From Bacteroidales bacterium (GTDB taxonomy: Bacteria; Bacteroidota; Bacteroidia; Bacteroidales; FEN-979), in the NCBI GenBank assembly GCA_014860625.1, contig JACZJJ010000119.1, forward strand, positions 363 through 64,362: 64,000 nucleotides of DNA, written 5' to 3'. Positions 2,010-61,955 of this stretch are shown one piece after another. The position numbers and the translations under genes are program-made. How positions within the stretch are numbered: position 1 is the first letter of the stretch; every line of letters starts with the position of its first letter. The notes under the pieces were generated by a model. It was not told the origin of the DNA. It ran no database searches and saw only the letters and a list, made by a program, of their open reading frames with translations.

Positions 2010-4991
2010 TCAGTGCTTTGGCTTAAATACGACCCCGTAACTTTTTTTTCCGTCGAGGGCGATTTTGCAGAAAGTTTCGAACCTGACGTTCCTGATATGG
2101 TCATTTTCCCAGAAAGCAGGCTGGCTGTCCAGGAAACCGACATCATACGATCCTTCACCAATGTGTGAATTGATGGTGAAGTATCCAACCCGGAAAGAGG
2201 TAAGGTTCTGAAAGAAATGAGTACCCTGGCTTGGATCAATCCGGTAGTTTTCCAGGCTCGACTCCACAATCAACCGGGCAGCAGATATCTGCGGCCAGCG
2301 GATCGGGATGCCCAGCCATGGGTCGCTGGAGCCCCAACGGCCCGGTCCGATCAGAATGTAGTTCTTATTCTCCTCCAGGAAACGGTCATTGACTTTCTCC
2401 AGCTGAGCGGCGAACTCCAGGCTTTTGGAGGCATCAAACGCCTCTGGTTTGATATAAACAATATCAGAAATATCGTTGATGATTCCATTGCCAAGTGCTG
2501 CATTTGAAACCAGGATCGTCTCCTCGGCGGAGATTGTTCCGGGATCAAGGTGAATGGTTTCATCGCGACCTGTAATAGGCCGGATCTGAAGTATGCTGAA
2601 TAACCTGGGCTCCCCTTTCGGCACATCAAGATTCACGGCAAATTCAATCTCTACCGGCTTGTCCATCTCCTTCTGCCCGATCTCCAGAATCTCCTGCAGG
2701 ATCTGTGCCAGGGGGAATGTGCCGTGATTCAAGATGTTTGAAAAGGTGATCAGCCGTTTTCCTGCAGACAACATGCCATCTTTGAGTGAATGGGCGTTGT
2801 AATCGTATGTGGAAGCTACCAGTTTCAGCACAGGATCACTTTCGGCATCCTTGACTTTAAGTTTCAGCAGGTTGATCGTCTCATCGCAGTCGGCATGAAA
2901 ACTGTCGGGGTTCAGATCCAGGGCATAAAAACTCTTCTGTGTTTCGGTAAGTGCCAGTTCAGGAGTGGACAGCTGAAGGATCTTTTTCGGGTAGCGCGGA
3001 GAGAACCGGATCCCGTTCCCGCCATCCACAATGTACTTGCCGAGTCCAAAAGCAATATTTGCGATGCCATCCCCGGGTTCTTCCGGAGCCATGGGATAAA
3101 AGTTGATGGATCGGGCAACTCCCGAGATCGTTGGGTAAAATCGGTTGCCATACTGCTTCCCGGTAACCTCTTGCAGCACTATTGCCATCTTCTCCTCGTC
3201 AATCATGTTCAGTGTGGCAGCCATGTAGGCTTTGGAGTCGTGGAAAAAGGCGGAGGCATAAACACTCTTGATTGCTTCACTCAGCTTCTCTATCATTAAC
3301 CGGTCGTTGAACCGGATGTTTGGGATCATGTAGGTAGAGTAAATCCCGGCAAATGGTTGATAATGTGAATCTTCAAGCAAGGAAGAGGACCTGATTGCCA
3401 CCGGGTTGCGGATGCATGTGATGAACGTATAGAGATCTTCATGGATCCGGAAGGGAAGCCTGGAAGCCACAAAATGGTCAAGAATCTCATTGTCGCTGTG
3501 ATTCGAAAGGGCAACTTCATACAGGTTGTTCTCCTCCATGAATTCATCGAAGACATCCGTACCGATAACCACCGTGCGGGGGATCGAAATCGTGACGCTG
3601 TTGTATTTGTCGGTAAGCCTGTTTCGTTTGATCAGCGAATCAAGAAAAGCAAGTCCCCTGGCTTTGCCGCCAATTGAACCCTCTCCGATCCGGCCAAAAT
3701 GTAAGAATTCATCGTAGCGGTCGCGATCGAAATCGGCAATCACACCTCTTGCCTTGTTGATGCGAAATGCCGAAATAGAGTCATAGATGTAGCGTTTGGC
3801 TTCATCCATATCATAAAACTCCGTTACGGAAATTTCAGAGAACATATCAGCAATAGGGAACAGAGCTCTTGCATTCAGCCACTTAGAAAACCTGTTGCGC
3901 TCCATGTGATACATCAGCGAATCGTCGGGGATCTCAAAAATCCGCTCCTGCATGGTGCGAAGATCAGCAACCCGACATATTTCGCGGCTGTTCTTCGGGT
4001 CCATGAAAACAAAATCTCCGAACGAGAAATGTTCATTGATGTAATTCCTCAACTCCATGGAGAGAGTTTTGGATACCTTGTTCACAAAACCAACTCTCAT
4101 CTGGTATGCTACATCTTTGTATTCCTCGTCTGACGACTGAAACAGGACTGGCATATATTCATCCTCTGTCCGGATCTTTTTCACAAATTTGATTCCGGCA
4201 GTTTTATCAGTCTCTCCCTGTCGTTTGAAACTGATGTCGGTGATGACCCCAAGCAGGTTGTTTTTGTATTTTTCCCAAAGGTCAATCGCTTCTTCATAAT
4301 TCGTAGCAAGCAGTATTTTGGTTCGACCGCGCATCCTGAGCATCTTTTGGTGCTCGTTCAGCCCTTCCGTCATGAACCCTTTTGACTGCTTGAAGATTAT
4401 CTTGTAGATGTTGGGCAGGTAGCTCGAATAGAATCGGATGGAATCTTCCACCAGCAATATGGCCTGTACGCCCTGCTTCACATCCTGATCGACATTCATC
4501 TTATCTTCGATCAGTTTGATAATTGCCAGCATGATATCTGCATTCCCCAACCAGGTGAACATATAATCGATGGCACTCAAATCCTTCTGACTGAGGCGCA
4601 GGCTGGATTCCCGTGAAAACGGCGTAAGTGCAACGATTGGAATTTTCGGATGCTGTTTCTTTATCCGAAGGGCAAGATCAAATGTGTCTGATTTCTCAAT
4701 GCTGAGCATTGAAATGATCAGTTCAACATGTTTGTCCTCCAGCACGGCGAAGGCCTCTTCTTCGGAAGTCACCTTGATAAACTGGGGGGGGTATCGAAGG
4801 TTCAGGGAGACATATTCCATAAAGATCTGCTCATCGATACGGCCATCCTCCTCCAGCATAAAGGCATCATATGTACTCGAGATCAGCAGGATCTGGTAAA
4901 TTCGCTTTTTCATCATCAGATTAAACTGAGTGTCAGCGAAATAATACTTCTTATGATCCAGCATTGATCGTGTTTTGGCCTTCTCTCCCAT
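2010..4991 (-). CDS. receiver-domain / PPDK_N (PEP/pyruvate-binding ATP-grasp) protein, no swivel-His domain; paralogue of 11845..15738
   Basis: Degenerate REC-like region (ILLISSTYDAFMLEEDG) followed by a canonical REC (AILLVEDS...LLGVITDISF...PVLFQSS). PPDK_N signatures GGKARGLAFL and VAIRSSSLLEDSHYQPFAGIYSTY. No GG-TSHAA-type phosphohistidine motif seen. Conserved C-terminal block ILIGPGRWGSSDPWLGIPIRWPQIS...GTHFFQN. Confidence 0.65.
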   Translation of the reverse strand: MGEKAKTRSMLDHKKYYFADTQFNLMMKKRIYQILLISSTYDAFMLEEDGRIDEQIFMEYVSLNLRYPPQFIKVTSEEEAFAVLEDKHVELIISMLSIEKSDTFDLALRIKKQHPKIPIVALTPFSRESSLRLSQKDLSAIDYMFTWLGNADIMLAIIKLIEDKMNVDQDVKQGVQAILLVEDSIRFYSSYLPNIYKIIFKQSKGFMTEGLNEHQKMLRMRGRTKILLATNYEEAIDLWEKYKNNLLGVITDISFKRQGETDKTAGIKFVKKIRTEDEYMPVLFQSSDEEYKDVAYQMRVGFVNKVSKTLSMELRNYINEHFSFGDFVFMDPKNSREICRVADLRTMQERIFEIPDDSLMYHMERNRFSKWLNARALFPIADMFSEISVTEFYDMDEAKRYIYDSISAFRINKARGVIADFDRDRYDEFLHFGRIGEGSIGGKARGLAFLDSLIKRNRLTDKYNSVTISIPRTVVIGTDVFDEFMEENNLYEVALSNHSDNEILDHFVASRLPFRIHEDLYTFITCIRNPVAIRSSSLLEDSHYQPFAGIYSTYMIPNIRFNDRLMIEKLSEAIKSVYASAFFHDSKAYMAATLNMIDEEKMAIVLQEVTGKQYGNRFYPTISGVARSINFYPMAPEEPGDGIANIAFGLGKYIVDGGNGIRFSPRYPKKILQLSTPELALTETQKSFYALDLNPDSFHADCDETINLLKLKVKDAESDPVLKLVASTYDYNAHSLKDGMLSAGKRLITFSNILNHGTFPLAQILQEILEIGQKEMDKPVEIEFAVNLDVPKGEPRLFSILQIRPITGRDETIHLDPGTISAEETILVSNAALGNGIINDISDIVYIKPEAFDASKSLEFAAQLEKVNDRFLEENKNYILIGPGRWGSSDPWLGIPIRWPQISAARLIVESSLENYRIDPSQGTHFFQNLTSFRVGYFTINSHIGEGSYDVGFLDSQPAFWENDHIRNVRFETFCKIALDGKKSYGVVFKPKH

Positions 4992-5053: not shown

Positions 5054-5084
5054 CTGCCAACTGCCAACTAGCAACTGCCAACTG
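5054..5084. repeat. heptamer tandem repeat CTGCCAA x4.4 (one unit CTAGCAA)
   Basis: Read directly. It fills the spacer between the diiron-protein stop (5089) and the start of 2010..4991 (4991). Confidence 0.95.
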
Positions 5085-11200: not shown

Positions 11201-11241
11201 ATAGGGTTTCTTTAAGTTTTGTTTCTTCTTGAATAAGTCTT

Positions 11242-11265
11242 CAGTTGGCAGTTGGCAGTTGGCAG
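11242..11265. repeat. heptamer tandem repeat CAGTTGG x3.4 (reverse complement of the CTGCCAA family)
   Basis: Read directly, in the spacer between the NuoE-like and NuoF-like genes. Confidence 0.95.
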
Positions 11266-11277
11266 ATATTGCAATTT

Positions 11278-11305
11278 CTGCAGACTGCAAACTGCAGACT
11301 GCCCA
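11278..11305. repeat. heptamer tandem repeat CTGCAGA CTGCAAA CTGCAGA CTGCCCA
   Basis: Read directly. It abuts the NuoE-like TAG stop (11306-11308) and forms an imperfect inverted repeat (about 18/24) with 11242..11265. Confidence 0.95.
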
Positions 11306-28461: not shown

Positions 28462-29691
28462 TTGATCCCCTTCTCCCCTCCCCGAATGGACAAAAAGATC
28501 GTCGATGCAGTCGTCGAGGCGCTCTATTCGGGGTGGATCACCACAGGGCCGCGCACCAAAAGATTCGAGAAGATGCTCACGGCACAGGGAGGTCAGCAGA
28601 CCACCCTGTGCGTCAACTCGGCTACGGCCGGACTTGAACTGGTGCTTCACTGGTATGGCGTGGGACCTGGAGATGAAGTAATCGTTCCGGCTTATACCTA
28701 CAACGCCACCGCCAACGTGGTTGTTCACTGTGGAGCAAAAGTGGTCTTCGCTGATGCCGGAGCAGATTTCAACATCAGCGTTGAAGCCATTGAACGGGCC
28801 ATCACATCCCGGACAAAAGTCATCATCCCGGTGGATATCGGAGGGTATCCCTGTAACTATGATGAGATAAACGAGCTGGTCGGCCAACAGGAGGTCCGTA
28901 CTCTTTTTCAGGCTGACACCCCAGCGCAGAAACAACTGGGACGAATCCTGGTCCTCTCAGATGCCGCTCATTCGCTGGGAGCCTGGTACAAGGGGAAGCG
29001 AGTAGGGTCTCTCACCGACATCACTGTCTATTCGTTTCATGCCGTAAAAAACCTTACCACAGCTGAAGGCGGAGCCATCTGCTTCAACCTTCCCGCTCCT
29101 TTCGATAACCAGAAGATCTACGAGAGGCTGAACATCAAATCGCTTCACGGTCAAACAAAGGACGCGCTGGCGAAGTCACAGGTAGGAAACTGGCGTTACG
29201 ACATTGTGGAAGCCGGTTACAAGTGCAACATGACCGACATCCAGGCTGCCATGGGAATTGTGGAACTGGAGCGGTACGACACCGATATGCTTCCCCGACG
29301 TAAAGCCATTTTTCACCGGTATTCCAACGCTCTAAAAAACTATAAATGGGTTCAACTTCCCCCTTTCGAGACCCCTGAAAAAACCAGTTCATATCATGTC
29401 TTCGCGTTACGCATCAAGGGCATCACAGAAGAACAGCGGGACCAGATCATTGCAGGGATCTTCACACGGGAGGTGGCGGTGAATGTTCACTTTGTGCCTC
29501 TTCCCATGATGACCTATTACAAAGATGCCGGATACCGGATGCCGGATTATCCTGTTTCTTATGACAACTATTCCCGCGAGATTACTTTGCCGGTTTATTA
29601 TGATCTCACGGATGAGATGGTGGATACGGTTGTGCAGGCGGTGGTGGAGGCGATGGAAGAGGAGATGCGGCAACCTGGAAGAAATCCCTGA
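28462..29691 (+). CDS. DegT/DnrJ/EryC1/StrS-family PLP-dependent sugar aminotransferase
   Basis: The conserved N-terminus IPFSPPRMDKKIVDAVVEALYSGWIT supports the TTG start. SFHAVKNLTTAEGGAI carries the PLP lysine. Confidence 0.8.
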   Translation: MIPFSPPRMDKKIVDAVVEALYSGWITTGPRTKRFEKMLTAQGGQQTTLCVNSATAGLELVLHWYGVGPGDEVIVPAYTYNATANVVVHCGAKVVFADAGADFNISVEAIERAITSRTKVIIPVDIGGYPCNYDEINELVGQQEVRTLFQADTPAQKQLGRILVLSDAAHSLGAWYKGKRVGSLTDITVYSFHAVKNLTTAEGGAICFNLPAPFDNQKIYERLNIKSLHGQTKDALAKSQVGNWRYDIVEAGYKCNMTDIQAAMGIVELERYDTDMLPRRKAIFHRYSNALKNYKWVQLPPFETPEKTSSYHVFALRIKGITEEQRDQIIAGIFTREVAVNVHFVPLPMMTYYKDAGYRMPDYPVSYDNYSREITLPVYYDLTDEMVDTVVQAVVEAMEEEMRQPGRNP

Positions 29692-38584: not shown

Positions 38585-39853
38585 TTATTCTTTAATAACA
38601 ACAAGTTTTCTCACCACCGATTGACTTTCATTACTTATCCTGCAGAAATAGACTCCCTGCGGAAGACTACTGATATCAAAGGTAACCTTTGGATTTCCAG
38701 AAGGAATCAGCTCTTTCATCACCCGAATCCCACTCACGTCAACAATCTCCAATTCTGCAAACTGCAAACTGCCAACTGCCCACTGCAGACTGACAACTGA
38801 GCTTGCAGGATTGGGATACAAAACCACATCGAGTCCATCGGAAGGCTGCAGGTTGATCCCAGCGATCGGGTAGCTCTGGGTCGATGCCCAGGTTTGGTTC
38901 ATGACAGCACCTCCCGATTCGCCACCGAATAATAGCACCTTGTAGCTATCTGCCAGACTGATACCCCGGGGACCATCCTCTCCTCCATCCTTGTAGAGCG
39001 CAGCATCGCCGCCAGATACCGGAAGAGGCAAGAAATTCTGCCGCTGGATCACATCGCCTGTTGCCGTATTGAACTCATAAACGAGATCACTATCCTCTCC
39101 CTGTGCGTCACGCCCTCCAAAAATGAAGACAACCTTCTCATTCAGGTTATTAAGCACATTGACATGGCTTGCATATCCCTGCAGGGGCAGCCCCCCAGTA
39201 GTCACTCCCCAGGTTCCATCTTCGATCTGATAATAGACAAATACCCCCGGTTCCCCAAATACGAGCATCATCTGATCCCCGATTGTAAATGCAAGATGGT
39301 GGCTATAGGATTTTGGACAATCTCTAAGCTTTTCGTATCCGGCGGAGGAGTATGACCAGAGGTCCCTGAGATTGTAGCCATCGGCTCCTGTACCTCCAAG
39401 GATCCCCATACTGCCTTCCGGGAAAGGCACGACAGACTGTCCGTGTCTTGCAGGTGGACGGGTTCCAGGGATGGAGGGCTGCTCCCATCGGTTCAGGTAA
39501 AGATCGTAGGTCCACATGTCGTCCAGGGGACCGTTTTCTCCCAATCCGCCAAAAACGTACATCTTGTCACCGCTGATCCAGGCATCATGCTCCATACGTG
39601 CCGGAGGGGGATCGTTCTCAGGGGTGATCTCATTCCAATCGTTTTGTTCAAATACAAATAGATCGTTAAACAGATCCTGTCCCGGGACTCCACCTCCAAA
39701 AAGAAGGACCTTGCCATCAGGCGTCGTCACCATGCTGTGTCCTTCGCGGGGGGAAGGTGCGTTGGGAGGGTTTAAGGATTGCCAGTCCTGGGCAATCAGA
39801 TCACTCATAAACAGGGAGAGGAAGATAGCAGCAACAATGTCTATGTGTCTCAT
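38585..39853 (-). CDS. Kelch-repeat beta-propeller protein with T9SS C-terminal sorting domain
   Basis: Repeated GG...W / R.GHS-type Kelch blades (PSPREGHSMV, PPARMEHDAW, PPARHGQSVV). The CTD is LYPNPASS...LEIVDVSGIRV...GVYFCRI. ATG at 39853 preferred. Confidence 0.72.
   Translation of the reverse strand: MRHIDIVAAIFLSLFMSDLIAQDWQSLNPPNAPSPREGHSMVTTPDGKVLLFGGGVPGQDLFNDLFVFEQNDWNEITPENDPPPARMEHDAWISGDKMYVFGGLGENGPLDDMWTYDLYLNRWEQPSIPGTRPPARHGQSVVPFPEGSMGILGGTGADGYNLRDLWSYSSAGYEKLRDCPKSYSHHLAFTIGDQMMLVFGEPGVFVYYQIEDGTWGVTTGGLPLQGYASHVNVLNNLNEKVVFIFGGRDAQGEDSDLVYEFNTATGDVIQRQNFLPLPVSGGDAALYKDGGEDGPRGISLADSYKVLLFGGESGGAVMNQTWASTQSYPIAGINLQPSDGLDVVLYPNPASSVVSLQWAVGSLQFAELEIVDVSGIRVMKELIPSGNPKVTFDISSLPQGVYFCRISNESQSVVRKLVVIKE
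38755..38799. repeat. heptamer repeat CTGCAAA CTGCAAA CTGCCAA CTGCCCA CTGCAGA CTGACAA CTG, inside CDS
   Basis: Read directly. It translates in frame on the minus strand as VVSLQWAVGSLQFA within the T9SS CTD. Confidence 0.95.
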
Positions 39854-39912
39854 AAGACTGATGTTTAGATTGATATACACAACACAAATATAATAACAAT
39901 TTCTATATGCCC

Positions 39913-39944
39913 CATTTCACCTTTGCGCCATTTCACCATTTCAC
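39913..39944. repeat. CATTTCAC octamer copies (x3, one separated by 8 nt)
   Basis: Read directly, in the divergent spacer upstream of cinA. Confidence 0.7.
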
Positions 39945-39956: not shown

Positions 39957-41306
39957 ATGAAGATCGAGATCATCAACATTGGCGATGAGATTCTCATCGG
40001 CCAGGTTATCAACACCAATGCGGCCTGGATGGCGGAGGAGCTGAACCGGAACGGATTCAAAGCGTTTCAGTTCACCGTAATTTCCGACAGCCGTGAACAT
40101 ATCCTACAAGCCCTGGAAGATGCACTGAACCGGGCAGATGTGGTGCTGATCAGCGGAGGTCTTGGCCCTACGAAAGACGACATCACGAAAGAGACCATCT
40201 GCGAATTCTTTGATACAAAACTGATATTCAGTGAAGAGGCTTTCCAAAACATTGAAACCCTTTTTTCCAGGAGAGGTTATACAGTAACAGAAGTCAACCG
40301 CAAACAGGCCGAATTGCCAGAGAGTTGTATCAGTCTCCCAAACAGACTGGGGACAGCCAGGGGGATGCTCTTCGAACGAAGGACGAAGGAGGAGGGAAGA
40401 AGGACGAAGGACGAGGGAAGAGGGACGAAGGACGAGGGAAGAGAGACGAAGAAATTGCAAACTGCAAACTGCAAACTGCAAACTGTTTTCATCTTCCTTC
40501 CCGGTGTGCCGTTTGAGATGAAGGATATGTTTACCCGGGAGGTGATTCCCAGATTAAAGGAGCGGTTTGCACCACAAGCGATCTATCACAAAACTGTCCT
40601 CACACAAGGTAAGGGAGAATCGTTCATTGCTGATATCCTGGAAGACTGGGAAAACAACCTCCCCGAACATATCAAGCTGGCCTACCTTCCTCAACCAGGC
40701 ATTGTTCGATTGAGATTGTCGACTTGGGGTTCAGAAGAAGATGTTATTAAGCAGGAGGTAGAGTCGGAGATTTCGAAACTCCATCAACTCATCCCCGAAT
40801 TGATCTTCGGATTCGATAATGATACGCTTGAGTCTATTGTTGGTCAACTTCTCATGCAGCATAAGCAAACCCTGTCCATTGCCGAAAGTGCAACAGGGGG
40901 ATACATCGCGCACCTTGTCACATCCTTATCCGGTAGTTCCGCCTGGTTCCAGGGCTCTGTGGTGGCATATTCCAACCGGTCGAAAGAAGACATCCTTTAC
41001 GTAAAAAGAGATACGCTTGAAAGCCATGGTGCGGTGAGTGAACAGGTTGCGCTGGAGATGGCGCTGGGTGCCCGGGGACGATTCAGAACCGACTATGCCA
41101 TTGCAACCACGGGAATTGCCGGCCCCTCCGGTGAAACTCCCGACAAACCTGTTGGTACATTCTGGATAGGAATTGCTACCCCCGACGGTGTTTTTGCCAA
41201 ACACTTCCTCTTCGGCGACAACCGCGAACGGAATATCCGCAGAACAGCGGTTACGGCGTTGAATTTGTTGAGGAAGGAGATCCTGACCCGCCCCAACCCC
41301 TACTAA
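39957..41306 (+). CDS. cinA: CinA-family protein (MoCF-type N-domain + nicotinamide-nucleotide amidohydrolase PncC C-domain) carrying a 35-aa repeat-encoded insertion
   Basis: MKIEIINIGDEILIGQVINTN, ISGGLGPTKDDITKE, LPGVPFEM, SIAESATGGYIAH, IATTGIAGPSG. The insertion RRTKEEGRRTKDEGRGTKDEGRETKKLQTANCKLQT sits between GMLFE and VFIFLPGVP. Confidence 0.85.
   Translation: MKIEIINIGDEILIGQVINTNAAWMAEELNRNGFKAFQFTVISDSREHILQALEDALNRADVVLISGGLGPTKDDITKETICEFFDTKLIFSEEAFQNIETLFSRRGYTVTEVNRKQAELPESCISLPNRLGTARGMLFERRTKEEGRRTKDEGRGTKDEGRETKKLQTANCKLQTVFIFLPGVPFEMKDMFTREVIPRLKERFAPQAIYHKTVLTQGKGESFIADILEDWENNLPEHIKLAYLPQPGIVRLRLSTWGSEEDVIKQEVESEISKLHQLIPELIFGFDNDTLESIVGQLLMQHKQTLSIAESATGGYIAHLVTSLSGSSAWFQGSVVAYSNRSKEDILYVKRDTLESHGAVSEQVALEMALGARGRFRTDYAIATTGIAGPSGETPDKPVGTFWIGIATPDGVFAKHFLFGDNRERNIRRTAVTALNLLRKEILTRPNPY
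40378..40454. repeat. purine-rich heptamer repeat x11 (GAAGGAC/GAAGGAG/GAGGGAA...), inside cinA
   Basis: Read directly. Same family (reverse complement) as the CTTCCTT array at 46507. Confidence 0.95.
40455..40485. repeat. heptamer repeat TTGCAAA CTGCAAA x3 CTG, inside cinA
   Basis: Read directly and contiguous with the purine-rich array. The 15 units together total 105 nt, or 35 codons. Confidence 0.95.
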
Positions 41307-46484: not shown

Positions 46485-46506
46485 CCCAACCTCTCCTATT
46501 AACACT

Positions 46507-46583
46507 CTTCCTTCTTCCTTCTTCCTTCTTCCTTCTTCCTTCTTCCTTCTTCCTTCTTCCTTCTTCCTTCTTCCTTCTTCCTT
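46507..46583. repeat. perfect heptamer tandem repeat CTTCCTT x11
   Basis: Read directly: 77 nt with no mismatch, in the spacer between the AraC-family and acyltransferase genes. Confidence 0.98.
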
Positions 46584-46673
46584 CCCGACCGGCGCGAACG
46601 TCATCCTTACCGGCACATTCTTTCTGTGAAGTCAAACGGTGATAGTTTTGCCCGAACAACAAAAAACCGCACC

Positions 46674-47903
46674 ATGGCAAATCAAATTCAATTCAACGCA
46701 GGAACGAAACCAACCAGGCAATACGACATCGACTGGCTTCGGATAATCTTAATCTTTAGTGTCTTTCTGTTTCATATCGGAATGATATTCAATTCCTGGG
46801 ACTGGCACGTCAAGAATGACCAACAATACAAGGAGCTCCGTTACGTAATGGCATTCCTCCACTACTGGCGCATGCCTCTGCTGTTCTTTATCTCAGGCGT
46901 GGGCACCTATTATGCCCTAGGGATCCGCTCCTCTGCGCAGTACCTGAAAGAGCGCGCCAAACGACTGGTTATCCCATTGATGGCCGGTGTCTTCATCCTG
47001 GTTCCTGTACAGGTATACATAGAGAAAGCATCCCAGTTTGATTCCCTGATCGATTTCTACCCACACATGTTCGAAGGAATCTACCCTTCAGGAAACTTCA
47101 GCTGGCACCACCTCTGGTTCATCGCCTACCTCTTTGTAATGGCTCTATTCCTCTCACCTTTCCTGAGTTTTGTACGAAGTGTCCGCTTCCGCAATTTCAG
47201 GACATGGCTCGAAAAACGGGTCACCCGGAAGCTTGGGCTCAACCTGATACTTATTCCTCTCGTTCTCTCCCAGCTTATCCTTCGCCCCTTTTTCGAAACC
47301 GATACACATGCCCTTGTTGATGACTGGGCATCCTTTACCTTCAGTTTTATCTTCTTTGTTTCCGGGTTTGTGCTGTTGTCGAGCAGAATTATCGGGGAAG
47401 CCATAAAGGATCAACGGTGGTGGTATCTCGGAGAATCAGTCCTGGCAACTACCTTCATGTTCCTCGCACCAACTCTCTTCTCGGAAGGAGCCACAACTGA
47501 TATCGCCTGGGACTACGCAGCTATGGTGGTCAGCTGGTCGTGCAGCATCACCGCCATCGGCTTTGCCCGCAAACACCTCAACATAGACTCCAGCTTCCGG
47601 AAACTGGCCAATGAAGCGATCTATCCCTTCTACCTGCTTCACCAGCCCATCATTGTTGTGCTTGGATACTTTATGGTTCAATGGAACATTGCAGACGGAG
47701 TAAAGGTATTATTAATTACCCTGAGCAGCTTCACACTTACAGTTGCCATCTACTGGTTCCTGGTCCGTCCTTTCAACGTAACGCGCATCATCTTTGGCAT
47801 GAAGCCGAAAAGGAGTAAGGAACATGCATACGAGGAGAGGAAAGCAATCCTGATTCCGACATCCAGCATCCAGTATCCAGTATCTAGTGATCTAGTGATC
47901 TAG
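46674..47903 (+). CDS. acyltransferase family 3 membrane protein
   Basis: DIDWLRIILIFSVFLFHIGMIF, RMPLLFFISG, about 10 TM segments. ATG at 46674 preferred over GTG at 46626. Confidence 0.7.
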   Translation: MANQIQFNAGTKPTRQYDIDWLRIILIFSVFLFHIGMIFNSWDWHVKNDQQYKELRYVMAFLHYWRMPLLFFISGVGTYYALGIRSSAQYLKERAKRLVIPLMAGVFILVPVQVYIEKASQFDSLIDFYPHMFEGIYPSGNFSWHHLWFIAYLFVMALFLSPFLSFVRSVRFRNFRTWLEKRVTRKLGLNLILIPLVLSQLILRPFFETDTHALVDDWASFTFSFIFFVSGFVLLSSRIIGEAIKDQRWWYLGESVLATTFMFLAPTLFSEGATTDIAWDYAAMVVSWSCSITAIGFARKHLNIDSSFRKLANEAIYPFYLLHQPIIVVLGYFMVQWNIADGVKVLLITLSSFTLTVAIYWFLVRPFNVTRIIFGMKPKRSKEHAYEERKAILIPTSSIQYPVSSDLVI

Positions 47904-47952
47904 TGATCCAGGAATCTATTGATCTAGTGATCCCGTGATCCAGTGATCCAGT
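47861..47952. repeat. ATCCAGT/GATCTAGT/GATCCAGT 7-8-mer tandem array (~12 units)
   Basis: Read directly. It spans both convergent stop codons (47901-47903 TAG on +, 47924-26 TAG on -) and both C-terminal tails. Confidence 0.95.
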
Positions 47953-49480
47953 CAAAATACCCCTCAATATTCAGCCCTTCACCAGTGAACCGTCCCAGTC
48001 GCTCCTGCCAATGGTAAAACTCCCCGTTTTTGTAAAAGTACTCCCGCATCAGGGCTGCAGTTTCAGGATTGAAAATATAGTCGTTGCCCAGCCTCTTCCT
48101 GAGCTCATTGTGAATCTGCCACTGGATCACTTCAGCAAAGAGGTAGTTGTGGTTGTAGATCGGATACGAAACGTACATGGAGTTGGCAATCTCGTGTGGC
48201 CGTGAAGAGGGCTTGTCGACCAGCAGAATTCGTTTCAGGAGTTGTGTGCGAAGAGAGTCAACATCCAGGTTCGGATTGTTGAATATCTCCAACTCAAGCC
48301 AAACGTTATACAACCAGAATCGGATGTTGACCGGAGAGTATTTCTTATAAGCGGCGCTCTTGGCTGCAATTTCATCATCGGTCAGATCGGTGTATTTTTT
48401 CATCCATTCCGGTGTATGCAGGATGCCGGCCGACCATTCAGCCAACCCCTCAGCCATGATAGGACTGGTGCCACCTGCCACCCATTCATACCCCTTGAGC
48501 ACCGGAGAAGGGATCTCCGTATAAACACACGCCAATCCATGTCCCACTTCGTGAAAGATCGTAGACAACCCAACGCCGGGATTCACCACAAGTTTAAAAT
48601 TATCAGGGATCCGAACAGCAATTCCCTGCCCACCCATCGGTGGCGGCAATATCATCTCCCGATGCAGGATGGGCAACTCCTCATACTTCATCCCCAATCC
48701 GTTCAGTGTGGAAGAGAGAATCTCCTGACGCTTCTCTTTCGGGGGCTCCGGAGGACCACACTGGAAATAATTAAAGTAGATCCGGAATATATCCTGGATG
48801 CCAACCTCATCGATGTCATTCTCCTCTTTCATCTCTTCAACCATCTCCCGATAGGGCACAATGGTAAGGGTGTCGATCACATCCAGCCAGTATTGAAGCG
48901 CTTCGGGCTGAATTCCGTTGACCATCAGCACCAGCTCGATATAACCGGGGAAACCCAATGCCTCAGCCCACCCCTTCCGCTTTGAAAGTAGCTCGACAGC
49001 CATCTCTTCCAGCTTTTTAGATGTAGGTTTTCCCTTCACTGTATCCGACGCAACAAGCCATCTCTCCAACTCCGACTGGAGGTTTTTAATCTCCGGAACA
49101 TTGTTTACCATGGATGCCGCCAGGATGTTATGCCATTGGATCAACCTTCTGAACAATAAGGTATCTTTGATTTCCGCCTGTTTCGGCATCCAGTGGCGAA
49201 AAACAAATTCAATGCTGTCCTTCTCCACAAATGTCACTCCCTTCAGCTCTTCAAGTTTGCTATAATCACCTAAAACACCCGAGTAGTAATCGTAATAGGC
49301 ATCGCCAAGTGCTACCGAATAATCCTCAAAAAGAACATCCTGGCGATCCAGGAACCGGCCAACCTGATTGATATCTTCATACCATGCGGCTTCCTGAGAC
49401 TGAAGACCCGATAAAAATCCGACAAGAATTACTATAACCAAAAAAGATCTTTTCATAACATGTAAGAGATTAGGATTCAA
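47924..49480 (-). CDS. putative secreted HExxH zinc metallopeptidase
   Basis: N-terminal signal/anchor and the IFHEVGHGLA motif. The exact family is not recognised. Confidence 0.5.
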   Translation of the reverse strand: MNPNLLHVMKRSFLVIVILVGFLSGLQSQEAAWYEDINQVGRFLDRQDVLFEDYSVALGDAYYDYYSGVLGDYSKLEELKGVTFVEKDSIEFVFRHWMPKQAEIKDTLLFRRLIQWHNILAASMVNNVPEIKNLQSELERWLVASDTVKGKPTSKKLEEMAVELLSKRKGWAEALGFPGYIELVLMVNGIQPEALQYWLDVIDTLTIVPYREMVEEMKEENDIDEVGIQDIFRIYFNYFQCGPPEPPKEKRQEILSSTLNGLGMKYEELPILHREMILPPPMGGQGIAVRIPDNFKLVVNPGVGLSTIFHEVGHGLACVYTEIPSPVLKGYEWVAGGTSPIMAEGLAEWSAGILHTPEWMKKYTDLTDDEIAAKSAAYKKYSPVNIRFWLYNVWLELEIFNNPNLDVDSLRTQLLKRILLVDKPSSRPHEIANSMYVSYPIYNHNYLFAEVIQWQIHNELRKRLGNDYIFNPETAALMREYFYKNGEFYHWQERLGRFTGEGLNIEGYFDWITGSRDH

Positions 49481-58954: not shown

Positions 58955-60691
58955 TTAATGCGTTGCCTTATACCTGTCTCCTGTATTCTGCATCATCAGC
59001 CGCTCCCACTCTTTGCCGTAGCCGGGTTGTGACGGGCCGGGAGGGATTCCTTTGCCGTTACCGTTGTCAAGCAATTTGCGGCCATCCGCTTTTTTAACGT
59101 TGCCGTCCATGTACTTCATAAAAAGGTAGTGAAAGAAGTCCATCCAATCAGCGACCAGCTGGTCGCCGGTTGTTACGGAAAACCGGGTGATATAGGCACG
59201 TGCATCGGCGGGTGATTTTTTGTACAACGCAACGGCCTTTGCATCCACCTCGGTTACTTCAGCTATGAATTTCGACTCCAGTTCCTGCTGGTAAGCCTCC
59301 ACTTCGGGGTGGATCAGATCGTAGCGGGTATATCCCCAGTTGGTGACCAGGTTGAAGGTCCAGAAAGCGGATTTGTCGTCCCACTTAATCATCGAGCCGT
59401 TGCCCCAGGTATAGCTGTAGGGGATCTCTGTCATGCCGCAATACATGGGAGCATACACGCATCCGTCAGTGTCGTCGACGCCAAACCAGAAGATACCGCC
59501 GACAGGATCGGGCAGCCAGCTTCGCGATTGCGCTACAAAGCTGTAACCGGTTTGCTGGGTGGCGATCGAACGCTCGTTGCAGTATCCATTGCTGTCGATG
59601 GTATAGGTCATCGGGCGCCAGCGGTACGGGAGGTGAAACGGTCCGGCACCGATGCCATCATCGAACTGAAGCGGCGTTCCTTCGAAGTGGTCACGCATGC
59701 CAAACATGACATCTTCCAGGGATACTTTTTCATCCGGCTTCACCCACAGTGGCATCCTGTTGGAAGCAAATCCATTGGGATTCGGGTTTCCGTCGGGGAA
59801 ATGATCGAGGTGTTCCACTTGTCCACAAGCATATTCGGTAATTCCTGCATCATTCCTGATGCCTGCATTGAACCTGCGAAAGAAGGTCCATACCCGGGCG
59901 TCGCAGAAACGGGCGCCGCCAAAATCGACCGGGTTGTACACATCCGAAAAGCTGAAAGCGGCATCGCTGCCTGAATAAAAACCGTGCTCTTTGGCAAAGC
60001 TGATCACGTCGGGAGAATGAAAGCAGGTCTGGGTTTTGTCGTTCCACCTGTTCTCCTTCATGAAAGGAAAAGTTGTGATCCGGGCCTGGTTGGCATGCCC
60101 GCAGATATAGCCGTCGGGAATCTGAAGGGCTACCCAAACAGCTCCCTTCTCAAATTCGCCTTTCCCGATGATTTCGAGGATCCAGGCTTCATTGGCGTCG
60201 GAAACGGAAATGGACTCCCCGGATGTCGAATAGCCGTATTCGGCTACCAGTTCGGCTATCACGCGAATCGCTTCCCGGGCGGTTTTGCTCCGCTGCAGGG
60301 CGATTTTCATCAGTGAGCCGTAGTCGAGAAAGGCGTCCGGCTGGGAACTAAGCTCTTTCAATCCTCCCCAGGTGGTCTCCCCAAGAGCAACCTGGTACTC
60401 ATTCATCAACCCAATTACGGAGTAGGTATGGGACACTTCCGGGATCTGACCGGTGACCTTGCCGTTCTCGTAATGCACAATGTCGAGCATCGCCCCTTTC
60501 GGGTGATCGGCAGCAGGGTAAAAAGCCAGAGCGCCATAGCGTACGTGCGAGTCGGCAGCATAGGTGATCATCACCGAGCCGTCCTTGCTGGCCCCTTTGG
60601 TGACGATGAGGTTGGTGCAGGGGTAGGAGGATTTTGAGGCCATAAGCCCGAAAATCATAAACAGAATTGCAAAAAATTTATTTTTCATCAT
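58955..60691 (-). CDS. C69-family dipeptidase
   Basis: The signal peptide is followed by the nucleophile Cys in YPCTNLIVTKGASKDGSVMITY. 578 aa. Confidence 0.8.
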   Translation of the reverse strand: MMKNKFFAILFMIFGLMASKSSYPCTNLIVTKGASKDGSVMITYAADSHVRYGALAFYPAADHPKGAMLDIVHYENGKVTGQIPEVSHTYSVIGLMNEYQVALGETTWGGLKELSSQPDAFLDYGSLMKIALQRSKTAREAIRVIAELVAEYGYSTSGESISVSDANEAWILEIIGKGEFEKGAVWVALQIPDGYICGHANQARITTFPFMKENRWNDKTQTCFHSPDVISFAKEHGFYSGSDAAFSFSDVYNPVDFGGARFCDARVWTFFRRFNAGIRNDAGITEYACGQVEHLDHFPDGNPNPNGFASNRMPLWVKPDEKVSLEDVMFGMRDHFEGTPLQFDDGIGAGPFHLPYRWRPMTYTIDSNGYCNERSIATQQTGYSFVAQSRSWLPDPVGGIFWFGVDDTDGCVYAPMYCGMTEIPYSYTWGNGSMIKWDDKSAFWTFNLVTNWGYTRYDLIHPEVEAYQQELESKFIAEVTEVDAKAVALYKKSPADARAYITRFSVTTGDQLVADWMDFFHYLFMKYMDGNVKKADGRKLLDNGNGKGIPPGPSQPGYGKEWERLMMQNTGDRYKATH

Positions 60692-60704
60692 TAATAATTT
60701 TATC

Positions 60705-60850
60705 GTACAGACGGGGCATGCCCCGTCTGTACGTTCGTGTTTTGTATTTCGTATTTTGTGTTTCGTTGGGCATGCCCCGTCTGTACGTTCGTGTTTTGTA
60801 TTTCGTATTTTGTGTTTCGTTGGGCATGCCCCGTCTGTACGTTCGTGTTT
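60705..60850. repeat. 54-bp tandem repeat x~2.5, preceded by a 28-nt perfect palindrome
   Basis: Units start at 60714, 60768 and 60822 (gggcatgccccgtctgtacgttcgtgttttgtatttcgtattttgtgtttcgtt). The palindrome gtacagacggggcatgccccgtctgtac lies at 60705-60732. The array fills the whole spacer. Confidence 0.95.
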
Positions 60851-61955
60851 AGTGATTTAGGGGTCTCATCCATTCCGGAATGGATTTGACCGGGGGCCGT
60901 TTCCCATAAAAAAGATTGTCGAGATGAAAAGCAGCCCGGGCAAAGAGTTTTGACCGGGAGATTCCGATCCGTACCATCCTGTGAAAAAAGGTATCGGGAT
61001 GGGAGAAAGGGCAGACAGCCATACAGCGGGCACAGTCGGTACCTGCTTTGCACCAGAAGGTAAAGCATCTTTCGCCGTTGATCTTCCATCCTGCAGTGGC
61101 AGGATCCCTGCTATAAGGCGTTTCAGGAATCGCATGGGCCGGACAGTTCTCTGCACATTTCCGGCAAATCTCACAGAAAAAGAGCGGATTGTCATTGGTT
61201 TGCACGGGGTCAACGGGAAATGGAAATGTGGTGGTCACCACGCTGATCCTGCAGCGGGGTCCAACCTTTCGCGACAGCAGCACCCCCATGCGGCCAATCT
61301 CTCCCAAACCGGCATCACGGGCAACGGGAGGGCAAATCACTTCGTAGTTGGAATCAATATGTGCTTTGGCTTCCCAACCAAAAGAGCGTAACAAGGATGC
61401 TACCTGCACGGCAATCACTCCCGCGTTCAGGTATTGCCTGTACGACTCCATGATTACCGGAGCCTGGGGGGCGGCGAGTGTAAACTCGCGATCCATCTCC
61501 ACTACAAAGGCAATGGCATAAGTGTGGGTGGTCTCCACGGGGTCGCCATAGTAATGATGCCGCCCCCTAACGGTGTACAGATGTTCGGGCTTCAGCAGGC
61601 AAAAACCTGTATCTATGGCATGCATCTTTGCAGCCCAGCGGCGGATATACTCCTGCAAGAAGTTGGGATCTGTCTCTTTTCGGTTGGGTGCCACATCACC
61701 GTCTATTTCAAACCTGAGTGCATCGATCGCCGGCTGCATCGCTGCAGCAGAGGCAAAGGCCAGCGGGTTGAAATAGGCTGACTGCTCAGAAAGGAGTCCC
61801 GGAAGTTTTTTCCACAGGTTATCTCTCTCCTTCCTGTCGGGGTGTGCCTGATAATAGGCTTCTTCCCTCCCTGGAGACATGAAATACCTTGAAAAGATGG
61901 TATCGCGCTCATCAACGCGGCTGGTTCGGTTTCGTGGAAATCGATGGGGATCCAA
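60849..61955 (-). CDS. reductive-dehalogenase-like / QueG-like 2x[4Fe-4S] protein, no Tat signal seen
   Basis: CEICRKCAENCPAHAI and CARCMAVCPFSHP near the C-terminus. There is no RR Tat signal and no membrane-anchor gene adjacent. Confidence 0.5.
   Translation of the reverse strand: MDPHRFPRNRTSRVDERDTIFSRYFMSPGREEAYYQAHPDRKERDNLWKKLPGLLSEQSAYFNPLAFASAAAMQPAIDALRFEIDGDVAPNRKETDPNFLQEYIRRWAAKMHAIDTGFCLLKPEHLYTVRGRHHYYGDPVETTHTYAIAFVVEMDREFTLAAPQAPVIMESYRQYLNAGVIAVQVASLLRSFGWEAKAHIDSNYEVICPPVARDAGLGEIGRMGVLLSRKVGPRCRISVVTTTFPFPVDPVQTNDNPLFFCEICRKCAENCPAHAIPETPYSRDPATAGWKINGERCFTFWCKAGTDCARCMAVCPFSHPDTFFHRMVRIGISRSKLFARAAFHLDNLFYGKRPPVKSIPEWMRPLNH

Follow-up and report, generated by a model that had tools for sequence, protein, structure and literature searches.

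How can a tandem repeat with a unit length not divisible by three be housed within the gene of a conserved enzyme? The question is raised by cinA of a Bacteroidales bacterium (GTDB FEN-979), which lies on the plus strand of a 64,000-nucleotide (nt) stretch of contig JACZJJ010000119.1, hereafter the window. A first description of this DNA, made from its letters alone (the original prediction), reported an in-frame heptamer array inside cinA and offered two explanations, a tolerated surface loop or a slipped-strand on/off switch. The array itself is real: it is seen in the sequence, in the translation of the open reading frame (ORF) exactly as described, in Tandem Repeats Finder (TRF) output and in Logan contigs of three sequencing runs. 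We consider it likely that slippage-prone 7- and 8-nt repeats typical of this lineage colonised a permissive hairpin turn of CinA, where they were filtered only for reading frame, stop codons and polarity.

The array and the CinA hairpin turn

Judged by its domains and fold, the window protein is a COG1058-KH-PncC CinA, a predicted bifunctional nicotinamide-nucleotide amidohydrolase and ADP-ribose pyrophosphatase. An exact-protein lookup found no record of it. The gene and its insert comprise the following features:

39957..41306, plus strand: cinA, encoding a bifunctional three-domain CinA of 449 amino acids (aa), as judged from the ORF, Pfam, PDB matches, an AlphaFold2 (AF2) model and dN/dS (0.03-0.10 against relatives).
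39966-40559, plus strand (aa 4-201): MoCF_biosynth/COG1058 domain (PF00994, E 1.6e-33), matched over profile positions 1-143 of 144 and spanning the insert.
40362..40379, plus strand (aa 136-141): beta-strand GMLFER, first arm of the hairpin, from DSSP on the AF2 model; corresponds to the conserved GTARGMWFE segment of the alignment.
40377..40453, plus strand: 11 purine-rich heptamers in tandem (CGAAGGA, CGAGGGA, AGAGGGA and variants), superperiod 21 nt; peptide RRTKEEGRRTKDEGRGTKDEGRETK.
40454..40485, plus strand: ACTGCAA (CTGCAAA-type) heptamer array of 4.3-4.9 units, adjoining the second hairpin strand; peptide KLQTANCKLQT.
40482..40499, plus strand (aa 176-181): beta-strand TVFIFL, second arm of the hairpin, from DSSP on the AF2 model; runs into LPGVPFE.
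40587-40811, plus strand (aa 211-285): CinA_KH domain (PF18146, E 7.9e-07).
40821-41279, plus strand (aa 289-441): CinA/PncC amidohydrolase domain (PF02464, E 2.2e-56).
Junction peptides expected from the loop: MLFER, TKDEGR and LQTANCK...VFIFLPGVPFEMK.

From 40377 the purine part reads CGAAGGA CGAAGGA GGAGGGA AGAAGGA CGAAGGA CGAGGGA AGAGGGA CGAAGGA CGAGGGA AGAGAGA CGAAGAA, and the remainder, to 40485, reads ATTGCAA ACTGCAA ACTGCAA ACTGCAA ACTG; within the ORF the peptide passes from GTARGMLFE through RRTKEEGRRTKDEGRGTKDEGRETKKLQTANCKLQT to VFIFLPGVPFEM. The original prediction had counted fifteen whole heptamers (105 nt) and credited that number with keeping the frame. Tandem heptamers they are, but the size needs correction: together the arrays are 109 nt long (~15.6 units) and add 36 aa, or 108 nt (40377-40484), to the protein, so that the frame is preserved because the total length is divisible by 3 and not because the units number exactly fifteen. 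Measured between conserved anchors, the window has 132 nt where distant orthologues have 36 nt, a net gain of 96 nt. Across 40376-40451, TRF reported period 7 with 10.9 copies and 78% matches and period 21 with 3.5 copies and 94% matches; across 40452-40485 it reported period 7 with 4.9 copies and 96% matches. Autocorrelation of the purine array was 0.77 at lag 7, 0.75 at lag 14 and 0.91 at lag 21, and the longest perfect tract anywhere in the insert is 4.3 ACTGCAA units.

Could the array length be an assembly error, or the gene an intact-looking pseudogene? Repeats pose difficulties for assembly, Logan contigs end within the array, and the purine-rich units occur in many other metagenome contigs too; against an artefact, contigs of three independent bioreactor-metagenome runs match 40000-40472, 40337-40481 and 40396-40839 with zero differences and zero gaps, reproducing both junctions and the full purine array. 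An array of 109 nt is, besides, shorter than common read lengths. Decay of the gene is contradicted by the intact ORF, three well-scoring Pfam domains, the presence of the invariant motifs and dN/dS values of at most 0.1, and we regard both forms of this explanation as extremely improbable. Only these three DNA runs hold the locus, at a depth of 2-7x, and their contigs, which drop rare variants, held no array length variants. A "goes back 63" joint was considered as a cinA variant and rejected, since the contigs concerned differ at 6 of 61 positions and hence represent other purine-repeat loci.

We located the insert on solved structures. The window CinA matched 6mr3 (1.8e-54) and 4ct8 (2.1e-43) in the PDB, and HMMER alignments to both split at the insert, query residue 140 pairing with chain residue 141 and query 177 with chain 146. 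An AF2 model built on a 33-sequence alignment had a mean predicted local distance difference test score (pLDDT) of 83.8, with values below 50 at residues 146-172, between two confident strands. Both lines of evidence put the insert where the original prediction had expected it, before the beta-strand that leads into LPGVP: it takes the place of a beta-hairpin turn in the N-terminal COG1058 domain. The 36-residue polar loop is predicted to be disordered, low AF2 confidence meaning that no fixed structure is predicted rather than proving disorder. Foldseek of the model returned 4uux, 4cta and 4ct8, all Thermus thermophilus CinA, at E ~1e-38 and template modelling (TM) scores of 0.80-0.81 normalised to the target.

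The solved T. thermophilus CinA (PDB 4CT8/4CTA/4UUX; PMC4246079) and the COG1058 pyrophosphatase family (PMC3680494) share with the window protein the COG1058, KH-type and PncC architecture, a superposition at TM 0.81 and the conserved GGLGPTxDD and PGxP motifs. They differ at one place, a tight turn at residues 141-146 in solved CinA proteins, for which the window protein has 36 extra repeat-encoded turn residues; we found no description of this hairpin in the structure paper (PMC4246079). The GGLGPTxDD and (L/M)PG(V/P)P motifs of the N-terminal domain are invariant in our alignment, as are P182, G183, V184, P185, F186 and E187 (LPGVPFE) across the orthologues. From strand topology, the turn would lie at the strand end opposite the LPGVP motif and hence point away from the active site.

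Three other identities for the insert were considered and rejected. Folding of the array region was no better than that of shuffled sequence (z-score -0.67), and searching the insert against Rfam gave no relevant match, only sub-threshold microRNA and small-RNA noise, which speaks against a structured or already known RNA. An intein, intron or mobile element is contradicted by the make-up of the insert, which in the window consists of tandem repeat alone and has neither an ORF nor terminal inverted repeats. Minus-strand ORFs at 40104-40481 and 40277-40492 were likewise dismissed as genes, since they owe their existence to the absence of stops from all six frames of the array.

The turn among relatives

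Comparison with distant orthologues of array-poor genomes (from Sphingobacteriia, Aureispira, Clostridia, Parafrankia and others) revealed exactly 36 nt between the GTAxG and [LM]PG[VP]P anchors in all of them, encoding a 12-residue tight beta-hairpin, typically MWFEK-NGK-xxVS. This alignment, which the original prediction had proposed as a check, bears out an insertion: the turn of repeat-free relatives has only 2-4 residues and not an equally long segment. By contrast, the anchors stand 54-225 nt apart in the clade to which the window belongs, the DNA between them being composed of tandem 7- or 8-nt units whose families differ from genome to genome, and heptamer or octamer arrays occupy the CinA turn in every DNA locus recovered from this family-level clade of Prolixibacteraceae-like Bacteroidales. 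The nearest named relatives of the window CinA are uncultured Prolixibacteraceae metagenome-assembled genomes (MAGs), at 85% identity. The insert units of individual loci were as follows:

L001: ACGTMAG, AACAACG, CGACAAT.
L002: CGAARGA, GCGAAAA, CTGCCAA.
L003: CGAGGGA, ATCCGGG.
L004: AATTCGA.
L006: octamer GCGGACAA and AACTGCC.
L024: GGTTCAA, GGGAAGA, CTGCCAA.
L042 and L043: GGGCTCA, ATCCGGC.
L046: CATCGCR.

The sub-array types recur as a patchwork in similar order, purine-rich units first, then GCGAAAA, then CTGCCAA or ATCCGGS, which suggests a shared origin followed by differential expansion and loss; as in the window, a CTGCCAA-type array holds the 3' position of the insert in L002, L005, L006, L024 and L025. 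No peptide or nucleotide motif is conserved across the inserts, whose unit families differ between genomes. At L028 (3409-3480) the turn carries an in-frame insert that contains an inverted repeat, GGGGCAGGT-TCCAA-ACCTGCCCC, rather than a simple direct array.

A neighbour-joining tree of CinA built without the insert columns showed one large clade, nearly all members of which have inserts of 10-57 residues at the turn. Two proteins within it, P0014 and P0015, have only 3-4 residues there and no insert, which indicates that the insert is dispensable. A second, separate insert clade (P0084, P0091 and P0111) lies nested among sequences whose plain turn has 9 residues, and its DNA (L045) is also heptamer-built at this position, so that the turn appears to have been colonised recurrently, in two separate clades. 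The L045 insert (1894-2040) is in frame and likewise contains an inverted repeat, with (GCATCCY)n first and the reverse complement of that unit, (GGATGCA/GGATCCA)n, after it.

Reading frame, turnover and rival explanations

All 17 distinct insert-bearing DNA loci of relatives were in frame with no stop between the anchors, as is the window. Most of these loci were found by tblastn, which can detect frameshifted genes too, and the others were read from the DNA of named proteins; were lengths free, the chance of 17 in 17 would be ~(1/3)^17, a figure that treats the loci as more independent than they are. Nei-Gojobori dN/dS of the window gene, computed against five relatives and taken from unsaturated dS only, was 0.02-0.10 upstream and 0.04-0.08 downstream of the array, which suggests that both halves of the gene are translated and constrained. 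In 18 of 18 inserts every antisense frame (mean Kyte-Doolittle +0.50) was less hydrophilic than the sense peptide (mean -1.53), and no unit contains a stop codon in a frame in which it is read. Since the loci are related, the counts of 17 and 18 overstate independence, though the arrays themselves differ.

The 21-nt regularity of the purine array (94% against 78% matches; lag-21 autocorrelation of 0.91 against 0.77 at lag 7) suggests frame-keeping steps of three units, unlike the intergenic arrays of the window, which are near-perfect at their own unit period. We dropped this superperiod as a general rule, because it is clear in the window, weak in L046 and invisible in most of the relatives' composite inserts, and we treat it as supporting evidence only.

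Because the nearest relative of the window CinA is only 85% identical, strains were compared in a sister species (P0005-P0009 against P0011). Five of its protein variants, 1-3 substitutions apart and present on 17 contigs, share an identical 44-residue insert, which shows that the array is not hypermutable on that timescale. The sixth, P0011 (locus L042), is 99.1% identical in nucleotides to L024 outside the insert; within it (at about 3400-3620 of the loci), L042 has six GGTTCAA-type units where L024 has four, its purine sub-array is shifted and its 3' half is unrelated. These 5' differences in unit count show that single-unit changes become fixed when another part of the array compensates for them. 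As for the 3' half of L042, it and ~15 nt beyond it resemble the corresponding stretch of L043, a locus of a species only ~82% identical in protein, and short-patch inter-lineage recombination would be the simplest account of its acquisition.

These comparisons bear on the switch explanation, in which cinA would be a contingency (phase-variable) locus, with gain or loss of one or two heptamers toggling the gene OFF and ON and producing heritable, reversible heterogeneity in nicotinamide adenine dinucleotide (NAD) recycling or stress tolerance. In host-adapted bacteria, such loci owe their phase variation to slipped-strand mispairing in coding repeats, and cinA shares with them a non-triplet tandem repeat within an ORF, a 7-nt unit of which one or two copies more or fewer shift the frame. 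CinA is dispensable in many bacteria. Its loss is reported to alter drug tolerance in Mycobacterium tuberculosis (PMC9033802), and simple-sequence contingency loci are also referred to in PMC4679880. The four and six GGTTCAA-type units of near-identical alleles imply out-of-frame intermediates or recombination, and in one relative's MAG (CALCGJ01) cinA is split between two contigs that end at the insert (L008 and L016; query residues 1-154 and 134-443).

Several observations nevertheless make such a switch quite improbable. Out-of-frame alleles number 0 among the 17 relatives' loci, and the window is in frame too; the related-strain count that the original prediction had called for likewise gave no out-of-frame length, five sister-species variants being identical and the sixth (P0011/L042) different yet in frame. 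The tracts are short or degenerate, with a perfect stretch of only 4.3 units and a purine array that is degenerate at period 7 and regular at 21, a superperiod that keeps the frame; contingency loci typically show the reverse, long perfect tracts. Purifying selection is strong downstream of the array, and the contigs of the three runs held no length variant at 2-7x. The broken contigs of CALCGJ01 show that such arrays fragment short-read assemblies, which explains the breaks equally well. Moreover, CinA is a cytoplasmic NAD-salvage enzyme and not a surface or restriction-modification gene. The tolerated-loop alternative, on the other hand, gains support from the hairpin-turn position, the pLDDT below 50, the short turns of orthologues and the purifying selection on both flanks.

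The account that we favour would run as follows. The source genome is that of a Prolixibacteraceae-like Bacteroidales rich in 7-/8-nt tandem arrays, mostly intergenic and of the cyanobacterial short tandemly repeated repetitive (STRR) or TAACTGA type, and one composite array would have settled in the turn of the COG1058-domain hairpin (strands aa 136-141 and 176-181). Transcribed and translated in frame, it would yield a 36-residue polar loop, predicted to be disordered, that projects from the N-terminal end of the strand bearing the catalytic-site LPGVP at its C-terminal end; the enzyme would stay functional because the loop points away from the active site. Length and sequence could then change by three routes: firstly, by replication slippage, here in 21-nt steps (3 units, 7 codons); secondly, by the birth and decay of neighbouring sub-arrays, unit changes in one being offset by another; thirdly, by occasional short-patch recombination between alleles. 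Selection would discard variants with a broken frame, stops or a hydrophobic strand in sense, leaving a hypervariable but always-open loop. Arrays may be born at a high rate in these genomes, and the CinA hairpin turn would accept any length.

Some points weigh against this account. Nearly the whole clade keeps the insert, and the turn was colonised in another clade too, so a benefit beyond tolerance is possible. Population length variation is seen only through Logan contigs of 2-7x depth, which drop rare variants, and the distance from loop to active site comes from strand topology, not from coordinates. A search for an RNA run carrying the locus found none, and translation of the loop and enzyme activity stay predicted. 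Lastly, the near-identical alleles L024 and L042 differ in sub-array unit counts by non-multiples of three, which implies frameshifted intermediates or recombination and leaves some room for transient OFF states.

The first of these points also speaks for a selected functional element, in which the polar loop is under diversifying selection (for example through escape from a phage or competitor CinA inhibitor, or tuning of oligomerisation) or the arrays act in cis within the gene, as DNA or RNA, as sites for a repeat-binding regulator of the kind proposed for TAACTGA arrays near start codons. Two very different alleles occur in strains whose background is 99% identical, and one of them seems to have come from another species; arrays lie directly upstream of the cinA start codon in several genomes, and for arrays of this kind MacGregor (2015; PMC4679880) argues a post-transcriptional role; and AACTGCM units share an AACTG core with TAACTGA, a resemblance only. 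However, the inserts of different genomes are built of different units and share no peptide or nucleotide motif, some members of the clade lack an insert, disorder is predicted for the loop, the RNA folds no better than shuffled sequence (z -0.67) and no candidate binding partner was identified. Since a high array birth rate and a permissive site explain retention equally well, we consider a selected element unlikely. We are similarly doubtful, and place little credence in it, of a fuller form in which the turn would be a selected, recurrently targeted hypervariable cassette, its mosaic sub-arrays swapped between strains or species and modulating CinA activity, interactions or expression through the polar loop or through factor-bound repeat DNA or RNA.

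Repeats elsewhere in the window and related systems

The two families of the cinA insert also occur in other arrays of the window, as the original prediction had noted: triple CTGCMAA (at most 2 mismatches) gave 13 matches against 0.00 expected, and the purine-rich triple 19 against 0.04. The CTGCMAA family is also found at 5054, 11238-11305, 25628, 38755 and 55144. In the 64 kb, TRF gave 47 rows, most of period 7 or 8 and lying between ORFs, in several unit families. Genomes with cinA arrays also have 7/8-mer arrays flanking the locus, whereas five of six array-free comparison loci (L009, L011, L012, L033 and L034) have none in their flanks; the sixth, L014, has flank arrays and none in cinA. 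Directly before the gene lies one further array:

39912..39944, plus strand: octamer array CCATTTCA x4, reported by TRF, ending 12 nt before the cinA ATG and outside the coding insert.

This octamer array belongs to the same genome-wide repeat phenomenon as the insert. At the start-proximal position in L001, L003, L004, L024 and L025 there are arrays of other units (ACCATTTC, AACATCC and ATTTCGCT). The longest perfect array of the window, TCTTCCT x11.3 at 46506-46584, lies 42 nt upstream of the start codon of an acyltransferase gene and is the reverse complement of the AGAAGGA units in cinA. A 54-nt tandem repeat at 60714-60858 (2.7 copies, 97% matches) is built of TTCGTAT/TTTGTAT heptamers, and is thus a higher-order repeat; it lies between or overlaps ORFs 58955-60691 and 60849-61955, both on the minus strand.

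Other arrays of the window reach into genes. The minus-strand gene at 38585-39880 encodes a Kelch-repeat protein with a C-terminal sorting domain of the type IX secretion system (T9SS; Por_Secre_tail), in which in-frame CTGCAAA/CTGCCAA heptamers (38755-38799) read SLQWAVGSLQFAE in the loop following the LYPNPA strand. At the equivalent place, relatives have other sequence or 7/8-mer arrays of other units (L002 1713-1744, L006 1700-1725, L007 1708-1733 and L024 1756-1781), so that this site looks like a second coding hot spot for repeats. A third in-gene heptamer insertion, in a DegT aminotransferase (29524-29547), was rejected as ordinary conserved coding sequence. Between two convergent genes, heptamer and octamer arrays (CATCCAG, ATCTAGTG and GTGATCC; 47860-47952) encode the last ~13 residues of the acyltransferase (46626-47903, plus strand) and the last ~9 of ORF 47924-49480 (minus strand), which indicates that repeats also create C-terminal tails.

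How does the cinA array relate to repeats already described? Long simple sequence repeats (LSSRs) of prokaryotes have units of 5-11 nt, of which heptanucleotides are the commonest class in repeat-rich genomes, and slippage is their proposed origin; those in coding sequence mostly have units divisible by 3 (Mrazek et al., 2007, as summarised in PMC4679880). The cinA array is a head-to-tail series of 7-nt units, far above chance, in a window with many arrays of several families, mainly intergenic and lineage-specific. As with LSSRs and STRRs, 7-nt (and 8-nt) arrays stand at many genome sites with several families coexisting, their phylogenetic distribution is sporadic, the arrays are mostly intergenic and often composite, and slippage would be their origin. 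Unlike typical LSSRs, the cinA array sits within a conserved enzyme gene with the reading frame kept open, and one protein loop is occupied clade-wide by different unit families. The cinA array is therefore a heptanucleotide repeat of LSSR type, distinctive in its position within a conserved fold, its composite mosaic and the recurrent occupation of one loop across a clade. An in-gene heptamer array must be stop-free in three frames and change in three-unit or compensated steps.

A close parallel is provided by TAACTGA, present as direct repeats in marine Beggiatoaceae, in some Cyanobacteria and in five Bacteroidetes; these repeats are mostly intergenic, many of them close before start codons (MacGregor, 2015; PMC4679880), with one set of two repeats in a putative PurC gene near its end (PMC4679880). 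The arrays described here are likewise heptamer direct repeats, in Bacteroidetes too; they share the start-proximal habit (the octamer array at 39912-39944), and their dominant family in the window, AACTGCM, has the AACTG core. They differ in that stop codons in the forward orientation bar TAACTGA from genes, and in that the units here are others and vary between genomes.

If the switch or the selected-loop reading were true, cinA would be unusual as a metabolic gene subject to repeat-mediated variation, and if the cassette reading were true, it would represent repeat-driven protein diversification or regulation in a housekeeping enzyme of LSSR-rich Bacteroidales. On the account that we favour, non-triplet repeats can inhabit an essential-type fold provided that they sit in a hairpin turn and that their units lack stops in all three frames, and the filters of frame, polarity and stops leave signatures in the form of a superperiod of 21 nt, a sense strand that reads as hydrophilic and changes in unit number that compensate one another. 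The variation in CinA length among Bacteroidales MAGs (409-464 aa) is explained by this single loop, and such proteins should not be called frameshifted or chimeric. The CinA turn provides a natural set of exchanged loops on an almost unchanged scaffold, and a handle on the still-unexplained biology of heptamer repeats in Bacteroidota, Cyanobacteria and Beggiatoaceae.

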